From assembly GCF_051903065.1 (NCBI RefSeq), contig NZ_CP178438.1: DNA of 64,000 bases. One strand, 5' to 3'. Both the position numbers and the translations under genes were made by a program. Below are positions 12,687 through 47,445 of this stretch, one piece after another. How positions within the stretch are numbered: the stretch's first letter is position 1; every line of letters begins with the position of its first letter. The DNA is from Escherichia coli (GTDB lineage Bacteria; Pseudomonadota; Gammaproteobacteria; Enterobacterales; Enterobacteriaceae). The notes beneath the pieces are model-generated. The model was not told where the DNA came from, made no database searches, and was given only the letters and a program-made list of their open reading frames with translations.

Positions 12687-14186
12687 ATGCTACATTTGTT
12701 TGCTGGCCTGGATTTGCATACCGGGCTGTTATTATTGCTTGCACTGGCTTTTGTGCTGTTCTACGAAGCCATCAATGGTTTCCATGACACAGCCAACGCC
12801 GTGGCAACCGTTATCTATACCCGCGCGATGCGTTCTCAGCTCGCCGTGGTTATGGCAGCGGTGTTCAACTTTTTGGGTGTTTTGCTGGGTGGTCTGAGTG
12901 TTGCCTATGCCATTGTGCATATGCTGCCGACGGATCTGCTGCTTAATATGGGATCGTCTCATGGCCTTGCCATGGTGTTCTCTATGTTGCTGGCGGCGAT
13001 TATCTGGAACCTGGGTACCTGGTACTTTGGTTTACCTGCATCCAGCTCTCATACGCTGATTGGCGCGATCATCGGGATTGGTTTAACCAATGCGTTGATG
13101 ACCGGGACGTCAGTGGTGGATGCACTCAATATCCCGAAAGTATTAAGTATTTTCGGTTCTCTGATCGTTTCCCCTATTGTCGGCCTGGTGTTTGCTGGCG
13201 GTCTGATTTTCTTGCTGCGTCGCTACTGGAGCGGCACCAAGAAACGCGCCCGTATCCACCTGACCCCAGCGGAGCGTGAAAAGAAAGACGGCAAGAAAAA
13301 GCCGCCGTTCTGGACGCGTATTGCGCTGATCCTTTCCGCTATCGGCGTGGCGTTTTCGCACGGCGCGAACGATGGTCAGAAAGGCATTGGTCTGGTTATG
13401 TTGGTATTGATTGGCGTCACACCAGCAGGCTTCGTGGTGAACATGAATGCCACTGGCTACGAAATCACCCGTACCCGTGATGCCATCAACAACGTCGAAG
13501 CTTACTTTGAGCAGCATCCTGCGCTGCTGAAACAAGCTACTGGTGCTGATCAGTTAGTACCGGCTCCGGAAGCTGGCGCAACGCAACCTGCGGAGTTCCA
13601 TTGCCATCCGTCGAATACCATTAACGCGCTCAACCGCCTGAAAGGCATGTTGACTACCGATGTGGAAAGCTACGACAAGCTGTCGCTTGATCAACGTAGC
13701 CAGATGCGCCGCATTATGCTGTGCGTTTCTGACACTATCGACAAAGTGGTGAAGATGCCTGGCGTGAGTGCTGACGATCAGCGCCTGTTGAAGAAACTGA
13801 AGTCCGACATGCTTAGCACCATCGAGTATGCACCGGTGTGGATCATCATGGCGGTCGCGCTGGCGTTAGGTATCGGTACGATGATTGGCTGGCGTCGTGT
13901 GGCAACGACTATCGGTGAGAAAATCGGTAAGAAAGGCATGACCTACGCTCAGGGGATGTCTGCCCAGATGACTGCGGCAGTGTCTATCGGCCTGGCGAGT
14001 TATACCGGGATGCCGGTTTCCACTACTCACGTACTCTCCTCTTCTGTCGCGGGGACGATGGTGGTAGATGGTGGCGGCTTACAGCGTAAAACCGTGACCA
14101 GCATTCTGATGGCCTGGGTGTTTACCCTTCCGGCTGCGGTACTGCTTTCCGGCGGGCTGTACTGGCTCTCCTTGCAGTTCCTGTAA
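12687..14186 (+). CDS. pitA: Low-affinity inorganic phosphate transporter PitA
   Basis: 499-aa polytopic membrane ORF matching PitA. Confidence 0.9.
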
Positions 14187-21170: not shown

Positions 21171-22523
21171 ATGACTAAACACTATGATTACATCGCCATC
21201 GGCGGCGGCAGCGGCGGTATCGCCTCCATTAACCGCGCGGCTATGTACGGTCAGAAATGCGCACTGATTGAAGCCAAAGAGCTGGGCGGCACCTGCGTGA
21301 ACGTCGGCTGCGTACCGAAGAAAGTGATGTGGCACGCGGCGCAAATCCGCGAAGCGATCCATATGTACGGCCCGGATTATGGTTTCGATACCACTATCAA
21401 TAAATTCAACTGGGAAACGTTGATCGCCAGCCGTACCGCCTATATCGACCGTATTCATACCTCCTATGAAAACGTGCTCGGTAAAAATAACGTTGATGTG
21501 ATCAAGGGCTTTGCCCGCTTCGTTGATGCCAAAACGCTGGAAGTTAATGGCGAAACCATCACGGCTGATCATATTCTGATCGCTACTGGTGGCCGCCCGA
21601 GCCATCCAGACATTCCGGGCGTGGAATACGGTATTGATTCTGATGGTTTCTTCGCCCTTCCTGCTTTGCCAGAGCGCGTAGCGGTTGTTGGCGCGGGTTA
21701 CATCGCCGTTGAACTGGCGGGCGTGATTAACGGCCTCGGCGCGAAAACGCATCTGTTTGTGCGTAAACATGCGCCGCTGCGCAGCTTCGACCCGATGATC
21801 TCTGAAACGCTGGTTGAAGTGATGAACGCCGAAGGCCCGCAGTTGCACACCAACGCCATCCCGAAAGCGGTAGTGAAAAATGCCGATGGTAGCCTGACGC
21901 TGGAGCTGGAAGATGGTCGCAGTGAAACGGTGGATTGCCTGATTTGGGCGATTGGTCGCGAGCCTGCCAATGACAACATCAACCTCGAAGCCGCTGGCGT
22001 TAAAACCAACGAAAAAGGCTATATCGTCGTCGATAAATATCAAAACACCAACATTGAAGGTATTTACGCGGTGGGCGATAACACGGGTGCAGTAGAACTG
22101 ACACCGGTGGCAGTTGCAGCTGGTCGCCGCCTCTCTGAACGCCTGTTTAATAACAAGCCGGATGAGCATCTGGATTACAGCAACATTCCGACCGTGGTCT
22201 TCAGCCATCCGCCGATTGGTACTGTTGGTTTAACGGAACCGCTGGCGCGCGAGCAGTACGGCGACGATCAGGTGAAAGTGTATAAATCCTCTTTCACCGC
22301 GATGTATACCGCCGTCACCACTCACCGCCAGCCGTGCCGCATGAAGCTGGTGTGCGTTGGGCCAGAAGAGAAGATTGTCGGTATTCACGGCATTGGTTTT
22401 GGTATGGACGAAATGTTGCAGGGCTTCGCGGTGGCGCTGAAGATGGGGGCAACCAAAAAAGACTTCGACAATACCGTCGCCATTCACCCAACGGCGGCAG
22501 AAGAGTTCGTGACCATGCGTTAA
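21171..22523 (+). CDS. gor: Glutathione reductase
   Basis: 450-aa ORF with GGGSGG FAD-binding motif and redox-active CVNVGC disulfide motif. Confidence 0.95.
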
Positions 22524-22530
22524 ATGTTAA

Positions 22531-22560
22531 AGGGCTAAGAGTAGTGTGCTCTTAGCCCTT
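22531..22560. terminator. Bidirectional hairpin shared by gor and dinQ
   Basis: agggctaagag tagtgtg ctcttagccct perfect inverted repeat. Confidence 0.55.
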
Positions 22561-22576
22561 AATTACGTTTCCGCTA

Positions 22577-22660
22577 TCAGTTCAGAAGCTGAAGCAGAAA
22601 GCGGATCAGTTCCAGCAGCGCAATTAACGCCCCAAGAACGATGATTGCTTTATCAATCAC
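22577..22660 (-). CDS. dinQ: DinQ small toxic membrane peptide (27 aa, type I toxin)
   Basis: Reverse strand encodes (V/M)IDKAIIVLGALIALLELIRFLLQLLN*; apparent GTG start; too short for the ORF track. Confidence 0.6.
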   Translation of the reverse strand: MIDKAIIVLGALIALLELIRFLLQLLN

Positions 22661-22734
22661 CCGTTTTCTCCATGCGATGGAGTGAGAATGCATCCGCTTA
22701 CTCATCCACTGCCTGTCACGGTGCATGTCTCATT

Positions 22735-22767
22735 GTTAGATGACGACTATCTCACTCCGGCCAGAGC
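22735..22767 (+). repeat. agr-type direct repeat copy 1, lying inside the inferred dinQ 5' leader (possible agrA region)
   Basis: ttagatgacgactatctcactccggccagagc; second copy exactly 200 bp downstream. Confidence 0.5.
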
Positions 22768-22853
22768 ATCAGTTAACGGCACCACCCGTACTTCTGACCA
22801 GGACTTTGAAAGCGTTTATGCGCATTGCCAGAGTGAAAATGCCTCAGAGCTAA

Positions 22854-22871
22854 CTGGATAATCATACAGTA
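22854..22871 (-). promoter_or_regulatory. LexA (SOS) box candidate for the dinQ promoter
   Basis: Reverse strand reads TACTGTATGATTATCCAG, about 15 of 18 matches to TACTGTATATATATACAG. Confidence 0.4.
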
Positions 22872-22929
22872 CATGCAGGTTATAAAACCAGCACGTCCTT
22901 GCAATAGTTTCAGTATGGTATTAGCATTG

Positions 22930-23018
22930 ATGCGTTAGATGATGGCTATCTCACTCCAGCCAGAGCCACCAACTCAGGGCTGGAAAGTAAAAAACCGACG
23001 CAAAGTCGGTTTTTTTAC
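22930..23018 (+). ncRNA. agrB: AgrB-like antisense small RNA candidate ending at an intrinsic terminator
   Basis: Second repeat copy (ttagatgatggctatctcactccagccagagcc) followed by ccgacgcaaagtcgg hairpin and T-run; 5' end estimated only. Confidence 0.4.
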
Positions 23019-23168
23019 GTCCTGATTCAGACCTCCTTTCAAATGAATAGCCAACTCAAAATTCACACCTATTACCTTCCTCTGCACATACACATTCGTT
23101 AAACCATATATGTTTTTGACTTATCCGCTTCGAAGAGAGACACTACCTGCAACAATCAGGAGCGCAAT

Positions 23169-23522
23169 ATGTCATTTCTGTTACCCATCCAACTGTTCAA
23201 AATTCTTGCCGATGAAACCCGTCTGGGCATCGTTTTACTGCTTAGCGAACTGGGAGAGTTATGCGTCTGCGATCTCTGCACTGCCCTCGATCAGTCGCAG
23301 CCCAAGATATCCCGCCATCTGGCATTGCTGCGTGAAAGCGGGCTATTGCTGGACCGCAAGCAAGGTAAGTGGGTTCATTACCGCTTATCGCCGCATATTC
23401 CAGCATGGGCGGCGAAAATTATTGATGAAGCCTGGCGATGTGAACAGGAAAGGGTTCAGGTGATTGTCCGCAACCTGGCTCGACAAAATTGTTCCGTAGA
23501 CAGTAAGAACATTTGCAGTTAA
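23169..23522 (+). CDS. arsR: Arsenic-responsive repressor ArsR (ArsR/SmtB family)
   Basis: 117-aa ORF with ELCVCDL metal-binding motif inside the wHTH. Confidence 0.9.
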   Translation: MSFLLPIQLFKILADETRLGIVLLLSELGELCVCDLCTALDQSQPKISRHLALLRESGLLLDRKQGKWVHYRLSPHIPAWAAKIIDEAWRCEQERVQVIVRNLARQNCSVDSKNICS

Positions 23523-29787: not shown

Positions 29788-31770
29788 TTACCATTGATAA
29801 CTCACGAAAATTTTTCCGTTACGACCATCCTGTGGGATGCCTTGCGGCGACCAGTACTCTTTGTCGAAAGCGTTACCCAACACCAAAGTAGTGGTCATAC
29901 CTTTGAGCGCCTGTTGTCCTTGATAACTGACGTAGAAATCATTCACGCCATAGCCTGGTTGTTTGCTGTAACTGCTGCTGATATGTGTTGAGCGATCGGC
30001 AAACGTACCAACCCACCCAACAGAGAAGCCACTGTGAGCGATCGGAATATTCAGAGTGCTGGTAACGGTATCCGGGTTAATGCTGGAGATGTATTCGCCG
30101 GTATCGGTGTCTTTGCCGCGGGTACGGTTATAGGCCACATCAAGGCTAAACAGATCAGAGGTATATTTCGTCATCACATCCCAGCCCCAGATTTTGGCGT
30201 TCGGGACGTTATACGACATAGTCGTCGCCGCCGCGAAATCGACGGTCGTGGAGATGTAATCCTTCGCTTTGGTATCAAAGTAGCTGGCTTTAAATTCCAG
30301 AGCATCATTGGACAACATCAGGTCATCAAAACGCAGCCCAAAACCGTACTCCTGAGTTTCGTTAGTTTCCGGACGTAAGTTCGGGTTTGGCACCCAATAG
30401 TTGGTATAGAAGCGACCAATCGAGAAGTGCTTAGAATCGTTATACATTTCGCCCATCGTCGGGGCGCGGAATGCCTGGGCATATGAGCCAAATAACATCA
30501 GCCAGTTAGTCGGATTGATAGTCATCCCCGCACGAGATGACCATTTGTCGGCATCAACATCTTTGTAACCGTCACTGCTACCGCGATAACTGTCATAGCG
30601 GGTTCCGCCAAGCAGGGTAATCGGCAGATCGCGTAAGGTGATCTCATCCTGTAGCCAGCCGGAGCTAAAATCGATTTTTGCTTGCGGGAAGCCCGTCGTC
30701 GCGCCGCCCGGATGTTGTTCCTGACGATAATACTCACCGCCATATGTCAGTAAGTGAGAAGCGAAACTGTCGGCAAAGAGAGTGGAACGGTTCTCCAGCC
30801 TGGCTCCTTTTGTTATCTGTTCACGATACTCGCCGGAACTCCCCGTGTTTTGCGCATTAATACGGACTTCCGACCAATAAATTTTTGCATCTGCATTTAA
30901 CCAGTCGTTGCCCTGCGGGGCGAGTTTATAAGAAAGCTGCGCATCGCGTTGAATTGTTGAACGATCAACCATCGGGTTGCTGCTTTCAGAAGCCTCAACG
31001 GTCTGCGGATTTTTTGGTTCACGCGCGTCGTTGTTGTAGTAACGCACTAAACCGCTCAGAGACTGGGCTGAATCAATTTGCCAGGTCCCTTTCGCCAGCA
31101 TGTTATTAATGGACTCGTCATTCGGCGCGGTTTCACCATTGCTCTGGCGTAAATCACCCCGATCGCGACTGGACCAGGCCACAATACCATCCAGATTTTC
31201 AGTTCGCCCAAACGCGCTCGCGCCTAATCCCAGGCTATGGTCCCCCGTGCCGCCAGTACCAAAGACACGAAAACCACTGCTTTGTCCTTCCTGCAATAAA
31301 TCTTTTGCATCGACCGTATCGTAGGAGATCACTCCACCCAGCGCGCCACTGCCATACAGTAATGCTGAAGGTCCGCGAACAATCTCAACACGCTTGATCA
31401 GCGCCGGATCGAGAAAAGTGCCATTCAGGTGTCCGGTATCCGTTCCCTGGCGAACACCATCGATAAGAACCAGCACGCCGCGATGATCATAGCCACGCAT
31501 ATTTACATCCTGACCGTTGGTTCGTCCGGTACCATCCAGAGTCATTCCAGGAACATGACGCAGCAGATCGGTGGCTGAAGTAGCCGTTTGATTTTCAGGA
31601 GCGGAAGTGTCGATGACGCTGACCATCATAGGCGCTTCGAAGGAACTACGGGCATTCCCCGTTGCCGTAACGGTCATGGTTTCAGTAGCAAAAGCAAACG
31701 TTGGCAAGGTGGCAGAAACAGCCAAGGCCAATAAACTCAAACGCAACGAGGTAAATTGCGGACGTGACAT
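29788..31770 (-). CDS. chuA: TonB-dependent outer membrane haem/haemoglobin receptor ChuA
   Basis: 660-aa ORF with signal peptide, TonB-box-like ETMTVTA, and terminal aromatic residue of a beta-barrel. Confidence 0.9.
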   Translation of the reverse strand: MSRPQFTSLRLSLLALAVSATLPTFAFATETMTVTATGNARSSFEAPMMVSVIDTSAPENQTATSATDLLRHVPGMTLDGTGRTNGQDVNMRGYDHRGVLVLIDGVRQGTDTGHLNGTFLDPALIKRVEIVRGPSALLYGSGALGGVISYDTVDAKDLLQEGQSSGFRVFGTGGTGDHSLGLGASAFGRTENLDGIVAWSSRDRGDLRQSNGETAPNDESINNMLAKGTWQIDSAQSLSGLVRYYNNDAREPKNPQTVEASESSNPMVDRSTIQRDAQLSYKLAPQGNDWLNADAKIYWSEVRINAQNTGSSGEYREQITKGARLENRSTLFADSFASHLLTYGGEYYRQEQHPGGATTGFPQAKIDFSSGWLQDEITLRDLPITLLGGTRYDSYRGSSDGYKDVDADKWSSRAGMTINPTNWLMLFGSYAQAFRAPTMGEMYNDSKHFSIGRFYTNYWVPNPNLRPETNETQEYGFGLRFDDLMLSNDALEFKASYFDTKAKDYISTTVDFAAATTMSYNVPNAKIWGWDVMTKYTSDLFSLDVAYNRTRGKDTDTGEYISSINPDTVTSTLNIPIAHSGFSVGWVGTFADRSTHISSSYSKQPGYGVNDFYVSYQGQQALKGMTTTLVLGNAFDKEYWSPQGIPQDGRNGKIFVSYQW

Positions 31771-31775
31771 AGCGA

Positions 31776-31791
31776 TTCTCCATGAGGAAAA
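31776..31791 (-). promoter_or_regulatory. FourU-type RNA thermometer hairpin occluding the chuA Shine-Dalgarno
   Basis: mRNA sense UUUUCC-UCAU-GGAGAA immediately before the AUG; six pairs including one G-U. Confidence 0.55.
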
Positions 31792-32059
31792 TAAAAAATG
31801 CTGGCTGCCTGGGTTAATACCGGGGTGGCTGGCGAAAAATAAATTTATTTAAAATTCAGAGCGATAATATTCGCCGGGTGAGTTTACAGGCGTTTATATC
31901 CCATGAAATTGCCTGATAACTCGGCAATTACGCAAAAGCACGCCCTCTTTGTCAGGCAAAACGATATGCCCCATCAGGAGTGAAGAGAGCTGTGCGTTAT
32001 CCCTTGCAAATGCTATGGTTTTGTTATCCATATGGTCGTGTTTTGTTAAATGCAAACGT

Positions 32060-47078: not shown

Positions 47079-47323
47079 GATTATCCCTTATATTTCATAC
47101 TGCGATTATTTCAATTTCAGTATACTAATGAAATGATGCCAGACTGTTTCTTAGCGCAAAAACTGCCAGATTTGGTAGGACCAAAATTTATCCACAAAGT
47201 AGTTTTGCATAACAGTTAATTGATAATAAGTAAATGCAACACGAATATATTTTCGCACAGCGTATAGCTTATGTTTATAAAAAAATGGCTGATCTTATTT
47301 CCAGTAAAAGTTATATTTAACTT

Positions 47324-47429
47324 ACTGAGAGCACAAAGTTTCCCGTGCCAACAGGGAGTGTTATAACGGTTTATTAGTCTGGAGACGGCAGACTATCCTC
47401 TTCCCGGTCCCCTATGCCGGGTTTTTTTT
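47324..47429 (+). ncRNA. gadY: GadY small RNA, antisense to the gadX 3' end
   Basis: Matches remembered GadY start ACTGAGAGCACAAAGTTTCCCGTGCC...; ends in cccggtcccctatgccggg hairpin plus T8. Confidence 0.75.
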
Positions 47430-47445
47430 ATGTCTGAGTAAAACT

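Follow-up and report, generated by a model that had tools for sequence, protein, structure and literature searches.

The closest described counterpart of the locus treated here is dinQ-agrAB of Escherichia coli K-12 (Weel-Sneve et al. 2013, PMC3567139; Kristiansen et al. 2016, PMC5066626), an SOS-regulated type I toxin-antitoxin system between gor and arsR with two tandem small RNA (sRNA) genes, agrA and the arsR-proximal agrB, ~231 bp apart. In K-12, AgrB is the cognate sRNA and binds dinQ at G88-A119 (PMC5066626), whereas AgrA, owing to mismatches, neither binds nor represses dinQ, does not close the Shine-Dalgarno (SD) motif, and fails to block translation (PMC3567139, PMC5066626). Toxicity, repression, and cleavage by ribonuclease III (RNase III) have been established in K-12 alone (PMC3567139, PMC5066626). 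We analyzed a 64,000-nt stretch of E. coli DNA (contig NZ_CP178438.1; hereafter the window), which has the same DinQ peptide at the same gor/arsR site but one agr gene instead of two tandem genes, and in which the AgrA-type sRNA is well matched to dinQ.

A more distant analogue is tisB-istR1, where a LexA-controlled toxin mRNA needs 5′ processing and a divergent, constitutive, trans-acting sRNA acts on the 5′ untranslated region (UTR), leading to RNase III cleavage (PMC3567139). The window locus shares with it the logic of SOS control, 5′ processing, and a trans-acting sRNA, but the sequences and the peptides are unrelated and tisB-istR1 has no tandem sRNA paralogues. The switch in tisB-istR1 is a ribosome standby site, as against an SD hairpin in dinQ. 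The same 5′-UTR architecture and peptide family are seen in the dql (dinQ-like) loci that Enterobacteriaceae carry and in T1TAdb's DinQ/AgrB family (PMC5066626, PMC8594479); the window locus is a true dinQ orthologue at gor-arsR and not a dql paralogue. T1TAdb records AgrA only “in some bacterial strains” and chose the sRNA by the most stable predicted interaction (PMC8594479). Our literature search found no published account of an agrA/agrB fusion, of alleles of the pairing patch described below, of a switch between the paralogues, or of agr copy-number variation beyond this remark in T1TAdb.

Identity of the locus and its single agr gene

The interval ~22520-23170 of the window is intergenic, with gor (glutathione reductase; 21171-22523, plus strand) on one side and arsR (23169-23522) on the other, both placed from the list of open reading frames (ORFs). 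The two coding sequences are 645 bp apart; for K-12 a distance of 823 bp is quoted. It is the E. coli gor-dinQ-agr-arsR locus, an already-characterized SOS-regulated type I toxin-antitoxin system (PMC3567139, PMC5066626). The region was matched in 5,422 of 5,426 complete E. coli genomes (megablast), loci identical over the 671-bp query carry the RefSeq label “damage-inducible type I toxin DinQ” (dinQ) between gorA and arsR, and RefSeq annotates dinQ, agrA, and agrB at the equivalent site in K-12. This agrees with the original prediction, made from the letters of the DNA, that a dinQ/agr locus lies here; all the elements it named exist in the sequence, and its errors were off-by-one coordinates. 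The locus is very probably a chromosomal dinQ-agr type I toxin-antitoxin system in a variant form with one Agr sRNA gene instead of two. All features of the DinQ/AgrB family that can be tested in sequence were found at the window locus, and only features specific to K-12 were not. The system is already known, and the variant is a strain-level one.

The region contains two copies of a 33-nt direct repeat, at 22735-22767 and 22934-22966 (30/33 identical, 91%), and no other direct-repeat family was reported in the 1-kb region. The copies had been noticed earlier and do exist, but the second had been placed one position too far to the right, giving a spacing of exactly 200 bp; the start-to-start distance is 199 bp, as in all related loci tabulated but one. 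Copy 1 (minus strand) is where Agr binds within the dinQ 5′ UTR, at dinQ nt 88-119/120, and its coincidence with the published binding region G88-A119 (PMC5066626) supports the earlier reading of this copy as the antisense target in the dinQ leader.

Copy 2 opens the Agr antitoxin sRNA (22935-23018, plus strand; 82-84 nt), whose 5′ end was set as in the K-12 RefSeq agrA and agrB. This interval matches the Rfam AgrB model RF02891 over its full length (107.7 bits, gathering threshold 40; E = 9e-20; model positions 1-84 of 84), and it folds at -30.6 kcal/mol (z = -5.0 against shuffles). The layout consists of a single-stranded antisense 5′ part (nt 1-32, copy 2), a stem-loop (22955-22984), and a terminator hairpin (22989-23015) followed by a U-run; fold and terminator are as in K-12. 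A terminated plus-strand sRNA of AgrB type had been proposed at copy 2, and the sRNA and its terminator are upheld by these results; the type was half right, as the family is AgrB but the antisense 5′ part is that of agrA. A simple terminator scan did not list the agr terminator, apparently because its stem extends into A/U runs. The window holds one Rfam AgrB match and two repeat copies, as opposed to three in K-12 (dinQ target, agrA, and agrB).

A separate observation concerns a 35-bp stretch of the Agr stem-loop (22952-22986), which has 100% matches in plasmid records (~46 plasmid places) and small-contig records. These may be agr-like sRNAs beside the plasmid-borne dinQ-like (dql) genes mentioned in PMC5066626.

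The lone agr gene as a fusion of agrA and agrB

The lone agr gene is, as read from the alignment, a fusion: agrA supplies the promoter and antisense 5′ end, agrB the 3′ part and downstream flank. A three-way alignment places a gap of 232 bp in the window relative to XH990, the nearest two-copy haplotype, and of 231 bp relative to K-12. On the 5′ side of the gap are the agrA promoter and the agrA-specific 5′ sequence GATGGCTA; on its 3′ side, the 3′ half is of agrB type (GGAAAGT-A6-CCGACGCAAAG) and the flank (ACGTCCTGATTCAGAC...) is that of agrB. Through Agr nt 14 the window gene resembles agrA, from nt 49 onward agrB, and the flanks differ from XH990 at 2 positions in 656 bp. The crossover interval, Agr nt 15-48 (22949-22982, plus strand), spans 34 nt that are identical between the two copies in XH990. 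As RNA, the window sRNA is identical to K-12 AgrA at 83 of 84 positions. The original prediction had found no clear terminator for a separate agrA, and the 232-bp gap accounts for this, because the strain has no separate agrA.

The likeliest origin of the fusion is unequal recombination or slippage involving tandem agrA and agrB within the 34-nt identical stretch, which would have removed ~232 bp, and we consider a deletion origin of the window allele probable. A second single-agr allele on the same haplotype, that of Z0117EC0054, has the same 5′ half but an agrA-type 3′ half where the window has the agrB type. The two alleles appear to be different mosaics of one two-copy haplotype, which indicates recurrent deletion.

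Predicted pairing of the lone Agr RNA with dinQ

The dinQ target differs between the window and K-12 in a patch of 8 nt at 22742-22749, which reads GACGACTA in the window and AAGAACTC in K-12 (four positions differ). The AgrA-type 5′ end GAUGGCUA matches the allele GACGACTA with two G·U wobbles. As in K-12, the trans-antisense contact is between Agr nt 1-32 and dinQ nt 88-119, ~65 nt upstream of the SD sequence. Over these 32 nt, the window pair has 29 Watson-Crick pairs, two G·U pairs, and one mismatch, an A·C common to K-12 AgrB:dinQ.

The predicted energies place the window pair close to the cognate pair of K-12. Window Agr with window dinQ gives a 32-nt duplex of -56.4 kcal/mol and a cofold binding gain with the +44 leader (the dinQ RNA processed at nt 44) of -35.4 kcal/mol, compared with -57.0 and -39.1 kcal/mol for K-12 AgrB with K-12 dinQ, and -41.5 and -24.9 kcal/mol for K-12 AgrA with K-12 dinQ. 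We therefore predict that the single window Agr RNA is a competent antitoxin, unlike AgrA in K-12.

The dinQ transcript and its switch elements

A 49-amino-acid (aa) ORF (22577-22726, minus strand) holds an in-frame GTG at 22660-22658, from which the dinQ coding sequence runs (22577-22660, minus strand; 27 aa, TGA stop; peptide VIDKAIIVLGALIALLELIRFLLQLLN). The peptide matches the NCBIfam equivalog NF041472 toxin_DinQ at 54 bits (cutoff 30), which confirms the 27-aa minus-strand DinQ with an apparent GTG start that had been proposed earlier. RefSeq annotates WP_001295215.1 at dinQ in identical loci, and the sole coding difference from K-12 dinQ, read from sequence, is synonymous (CTT/CTA).

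We transferred the K-12 numbering by aligning G88-A119 with repeat copy 1 (T at 22736 to 22767), so that dinQ nt n is window position 22855 - n on the minus strand; the transfer of the K-12 map rests on 22768-22934 being identical to K-12. The primary transcript of ~331 nt would occupy 22524-22854, following the K-12 mapping (PMC3567139, PMC5066626) and with the 3′ end set from the stated length. The transferred numbering puts +1 (nt 1) at 22854, inside the LexA box, the +44 processing site (nt 44) at 22811, and the GTG start (nt 195) at 22660, which makes a leader of 194 nt with copy 1 inside it, in line with the ~200-nt leader including the complement of copy 1 that had been suggested. Switch element 1 (U16-C28; 22827-22839), which locks the +1 transcript, element 3 (nt 167-178; 22677-22688), and element 4 (22668-22673) are identical to K-12 (elements 3 and 4 as defined in PMC5066626), as is the SD sequence GGAG (nt 184-187; 22668-22671). 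Element 2 (nt 94-106 in the K-12 definition; 22749-22761) lies inside repeat copy 1 and differs from K-12 solely at its terminal nt 106. The region of stem-loop 3 (SL3; ~nt 106-128, 22727-22749), with the loop CUAACA, corresponds to the published K-12 SL3 U110-A127 and is predicted in the window +44 fold. At the far end, a 12-nt perfect inverted repeat with a terminator-like site (22530-22560, both strands) marks the bidirectional gor/dinQ terminator hairpin, and its coordinates coincide exactly with the published dinQ stem-loop 9 (A295-U325). Over 331 nt, the dinQ RNA of the window differs from that of K-12 at six positions (nt 106, 110, 111, 113, 133, and 221, the last being synonymous), and it is identical to that of XH990. 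The dinQ promoter region and the +1/+44 context are likewise the same as in K-12.

The mutually exclusive pairings that open and close the SD sequence (1:2, 2:3, and 3:4) are reproduced by the folds computed for the window. In the predicted minimum free energy (MFE) fold of nt 1-200, the long S1 stem is present in the +1 RNA and the SD hairpin is closed. The MFE fold of the +44 RNA has S2 (nt 97-105 with 168-176) and SL3, without the SD hairpin, and when the +44 RNA is paired with Agr the SD hairpin re-forms.

The dinQ 5′ UTR is also overlapped on the opposite strand by a 57-aa “hypothetical protein” called by PGAP (WP_001362224.1; 22689-22862, plus strand), which is annotated in some strains only. 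We did not retain it as a real gene; it has no Pfam or NCBIfam match and its annotation is patchy, which makes it a likely over-call.

LexA operator, promoters, and proposed mechanism

The LexA operator is the 20-mer TACTGTATGATTATCCAGTT at 22852-22871 (minus strand), which overlaps the dinQ -10 and +1 and is identical to the K-12 operator. Within it, TACTGTATGATTATCCAGT at 22853-22871 (minus strand) matches TACTG-N10-CAGT exactly, one of two exact matches in 64 kb. The LexA-like box noted earlier at 22854-22871 is thus a true match to this pattern, with its extent corrected to 22852-22871. The K-12 dinQ operator has a heterology index (HI) of 4.83 (PMC3567139), and the operator identity suggests that dinQ is under SOS control here through putative LexA binding. 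The dinQ -10 is probably TATGAT (22866-22861), as placed from +1; no convincing -35 hexamer was seen at the promoter. The second LexA operator described in K-12 (HI 13.82; PMC3567139) could not be placed with confidence in the window. The other exact TACTG-N10-CAGT in the window (14160-14178, plus strand) has a G+C-rich spacer and is therefore probably a coincidence and not a LexA site.

The agr promoter, read from sequence, is of agrA type (22899-22927, plus strand), with -35 TTGCAA at 22899-22904, a 17-bp spacer, and -10 TAGCAT at 22922-22927. The region is identical to that upstream of K-12 agrA and unlike that upstream of agrB; the agr start in K-12 has been mapped by primer extension (PMC3567139). 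A consensus promoter scan did not call the agr promoter, which with 8 of 12 hexamer matches fell under the threshold, and the only promoter-like call of the scan (22833-22862, plus strand) was set aside since it coincides with no mapped start. We took the agr promoter and terminator from the Rfam model, the fold, and the mapping done in K-12, and not from consensus scans.

The mechanism below was demonstrated in K-12 (PMC3567139, PMC5066626), and we infer it for this locus from sequence identity. LexA bound at 22852-22871 would repress dinQ. DNA damage would release the ~331-nt dinQ mRNA in an untranslatable form, with element 1 paired to element 2 and the SD sequence held in the 3:4 hairpin. 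Removal of the first 43 nt would let element 2 pair with element 3, freeing the SD sequence, and the 27-aa membrane peptide DinQ would be made from the GTG. The first 32 nt of the constitutive Agr RNA would pair with dinQ nt 88-119, which would re-close the SD hairpin and create an RNase III substrate.

Elsewhere in the window, the other Rfam matches at gathering level are the shuA/chuA 5′-UTR thermoregulator (31768-31799, minus strand), the ES205 sRNA (41471-41542, plus strand), and GadY (47321-47434, plus strand). The presence of chuA presumably means that the strain does not belong to phylogroup A or B1.

Copy number and patch alleles in the population

Sampling the 5,468 matching records at spread ranks gave 59 full chromosomal hits; the span of each hit and its number of pieces served to infer its architecture. 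Around 40 of the 59 have two agr genes, 10 have one (7 spanning 670-671 bp and 3 spanning 631 bp with arsRB missing), and 9 span 432 bp. In ST131 MB1341, a representative of the 432-bp class (L004 1261-1560, compared with window 22560-23060), the 199 bp between the target and agr repeats are missing. Loci of this ST131 type keep the dinQ ORF but not the dinQ promoter, the LexA box, or the agr promoter, and RefSeq still annotates dinQ in them.

Furthermore, 26 complete-genome loci, including the window, were retrieved and tabulated; they contain at least five alleles of the target patch (GACGACTA, AAGAACTC, AATGGCAT, AATGGTAT, and GTGGGCAT). Each of the two-copy genomes (n = 14) has one agr gene that matches its own target well (-50 to -65 kcal/mol) and one that matches poorly (-39.6 to -50.4 kcal/mol). 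The good copy is agrB in 7 of the 14 (including K-12, ATCC 8739, and GPEC1210) and agrA in the other 7 (XH990, O157:H7, M6, L3Cip3, 98218, SX48, and B1.H1.1). All single-agr complete-genome loci (11/11) keep a good match (-52 to -57 kcal/mol). When the 9 distinct haplotypes had their targets permuted, the mean fit was as good in ~0.05% of permutations (P ~ 0.0005), with linkage and shared ancestry ignored.

The patch, which in the target varies together with one agr copy, lies at 22742-22749 in the dinQ target and at 22941-22948 in agr (compared across loci L002-L015 and L097-L106). On the sRNA side it falls in the unpaired 5′ part of Agr, and on the target side it is part of SL3; the CUAACA loop of this hairpin displays the complement of the 5′ end of Agr. 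Among 11 distinct sequences, 87.9% of the cells of the bulged SL3 hairpin are paired, against 24-56% in slid controls, and there are two compensatory pairs. The local fold energy of the SL3 segment is no different from that of shuffles (z from -0.2 to 1.2), and support for SL3 comes from the pair counts across alleles and from the published SHAPE (selective 2′-hydroxyl acylation analyzed by primer extension) model, not from local fold energies.

The 8-nt patch (Agr nt 7-14, dinQ nt 113-106), which is polymorphic in Escherichia, may set which Agr RNA recognizes dinQ, each allele being matched by one paralogue and compensated within SL3, with the real antitoxin depending on lineage (AgrB in K-12, AgrA in O157:H7 and in this strain); we hold this proposal to be evenly balanced.

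Alternative explanations for the single agr gene

The single agr gene could in principle be ancestral and never duplicated, with two-copy strains of XH990 type having gained 232 bp by recombination. One agr gene with an agrA-type promoter and an agrB-type flank is also found in E. albertii NBRC 107761, Escherichia sp. E1V33, and SCPM-O-B-8794, and the window lineage has no close two-copy relative; after three genomes that are 100% identical to it over 20.5 kb (23CRST027, 23CRST031, and ECNB21-M121), the next-best matches are O55:H7/O157:H7 at 98.1%. However, the three outgroup records are drafts, in which tandem copies can collapse, and two copies with the same spacer occur in E. whittamii and in most E. 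coli phylogroups. The window-type allele, moreover, is present in 3 of 5,426 genomes, and its two-copy counterpart fills the next listed ranks (H4-H15, 97.8%), while the different 3′ halves of the window and Z0117EC0054 are most simply read as two deletions with different crossover points. We regard an ancestral single gene as unlikely. Collapse of a tandem repeat during assembly is a far less probable cause of the missing copy. Many short-read metagenome contigs do show a single-agr K-12 haplotype, and no such locus is among the listed top matches of the 5,426 complete genomes, which suggests that collapses happen; but assembly error is made unlikely here by the arrangement recurring, with the same 671-bp sequence, in the three identical genomes, which are complete and were assembled independently. 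In addition, the two copies share an identical run of only 34 nt, which we judge short for usual k-mers or long reads. It is also improbable, though less so than collapse, that the locus is decaying, with agrB lost and an AgrA-like RNA that fails to control dinQ, leaving the system inert or misregulated. The near identity of the window sRNA to K-12 AgrA, which is inactive on dinQ in K-12, would fit such decay, as would the loss of both promoters in ST131 through the 199-bp deletion. Against it, the cognate target of the window differs from that of K-12 at four patch positions, and both the duplex and the cofold energies are well below those of K-12 AgrA:dinQ (-56.4 vs. -41.5 and -35.4 vs. -24.9 kcal/mol); the promoter, the LexA box, the four switch elements, the SD sequence, the GTG, and the ORF are all intact; and a well-matched copy is kept in every single-agr complete-genome locus.

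Several points nevertheless weigh against the reading that we prefer, a deletion-derived fusion whose RNA is a competent antitoxin. Pairing or RNase III cleavage could be slowed beyond what the energies imply by the two G·U wobbles in the single-stranded 5′ part of Agr and by the conserved A·C mismatch, and the functional statements for this strain are either transferred from K-12 or thermodynamic predictions. The genome collection searched holds no near-clonal two-copy sister of the window strain, and drafts of E. albertii and of two other Escherichia lineages have one agr gene, as against two in E. whittamii. Dating of the agr duplication by spacer homology, in which the inter-agr spacer was compared with the sequence preceding agrA and with that following agrB, was not significant (local alignment scores of 18 and 17; shuffle mean ~15.6, maximum 24-25). 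Finally, in ~9 metagenome contigs a K-12 target stands beside a single mismatched gene of agrA type, and two two-copy metagenome loci have no good match (L040, L044, L052, L062, L082, L086, L094, L026, L025, L037, and L059 are the metagenome loci concerned). These mismatched loci are likely assembly collapses or strain chimeras, the other possibility being real counter-examples. K-12 agrA and agrB are identical over ~58 nt, and a mismatched single-agr K-12 locus is absent from the listed top matches of the 5,426 complete genomes, where it would be expected to rank above the 97.8% two-piece hits.

The K-12 inter-agr spacer (L003 2146-2294) itself shows some likeness to its surroundings: the 16 bp that follow the agrA terminator agree at 13 of 16 positions with those that follow the agrB terminator, and the agrA and agrB promoters can be aligned. 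Its central ~95 bp have no detectable similarity to the flanks. A LexA-box remnant in the spacer was considered and dropped, the spacer similarity being within the shuffle range.

Discussion

The three repeat copies (dinQ target, agrA, and agrB) are direct repeats on the same strand, and gene conversion among them could maintain the match between toxin and antitoxin. Recombination between the same copies would generate a series of loci with three, two, and one repeat, ending in ST131-type loci from which both promoters are lost. We hypothesize that agrA/agrB fusions survive only where AgrA is the cognate sRNA. This fits the complete-genome loci (11/11) and is contradicted by the metagenome contigs; independent fusion events are few, perhaps four.

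For workers on type I toxin-antitoxin systems, dinQ-agr is of textbook standing, and finding it in E. coli is routine. What the window adds concerns the two sRNA paralogues. The view of AgrA as a degenerate, nonfunctional duplicate seems to hold for the K-12 haplotype only; the AgrA-type sequence matches dinQ in the window strain and probably also in O157:H7. The positional names agrA and agrB do not tell which sRNA is the antitoxin, and annotation is affected by this. The alleles described here are natural swaps with which to test how short patches set the specificity of an sRNA for its target.

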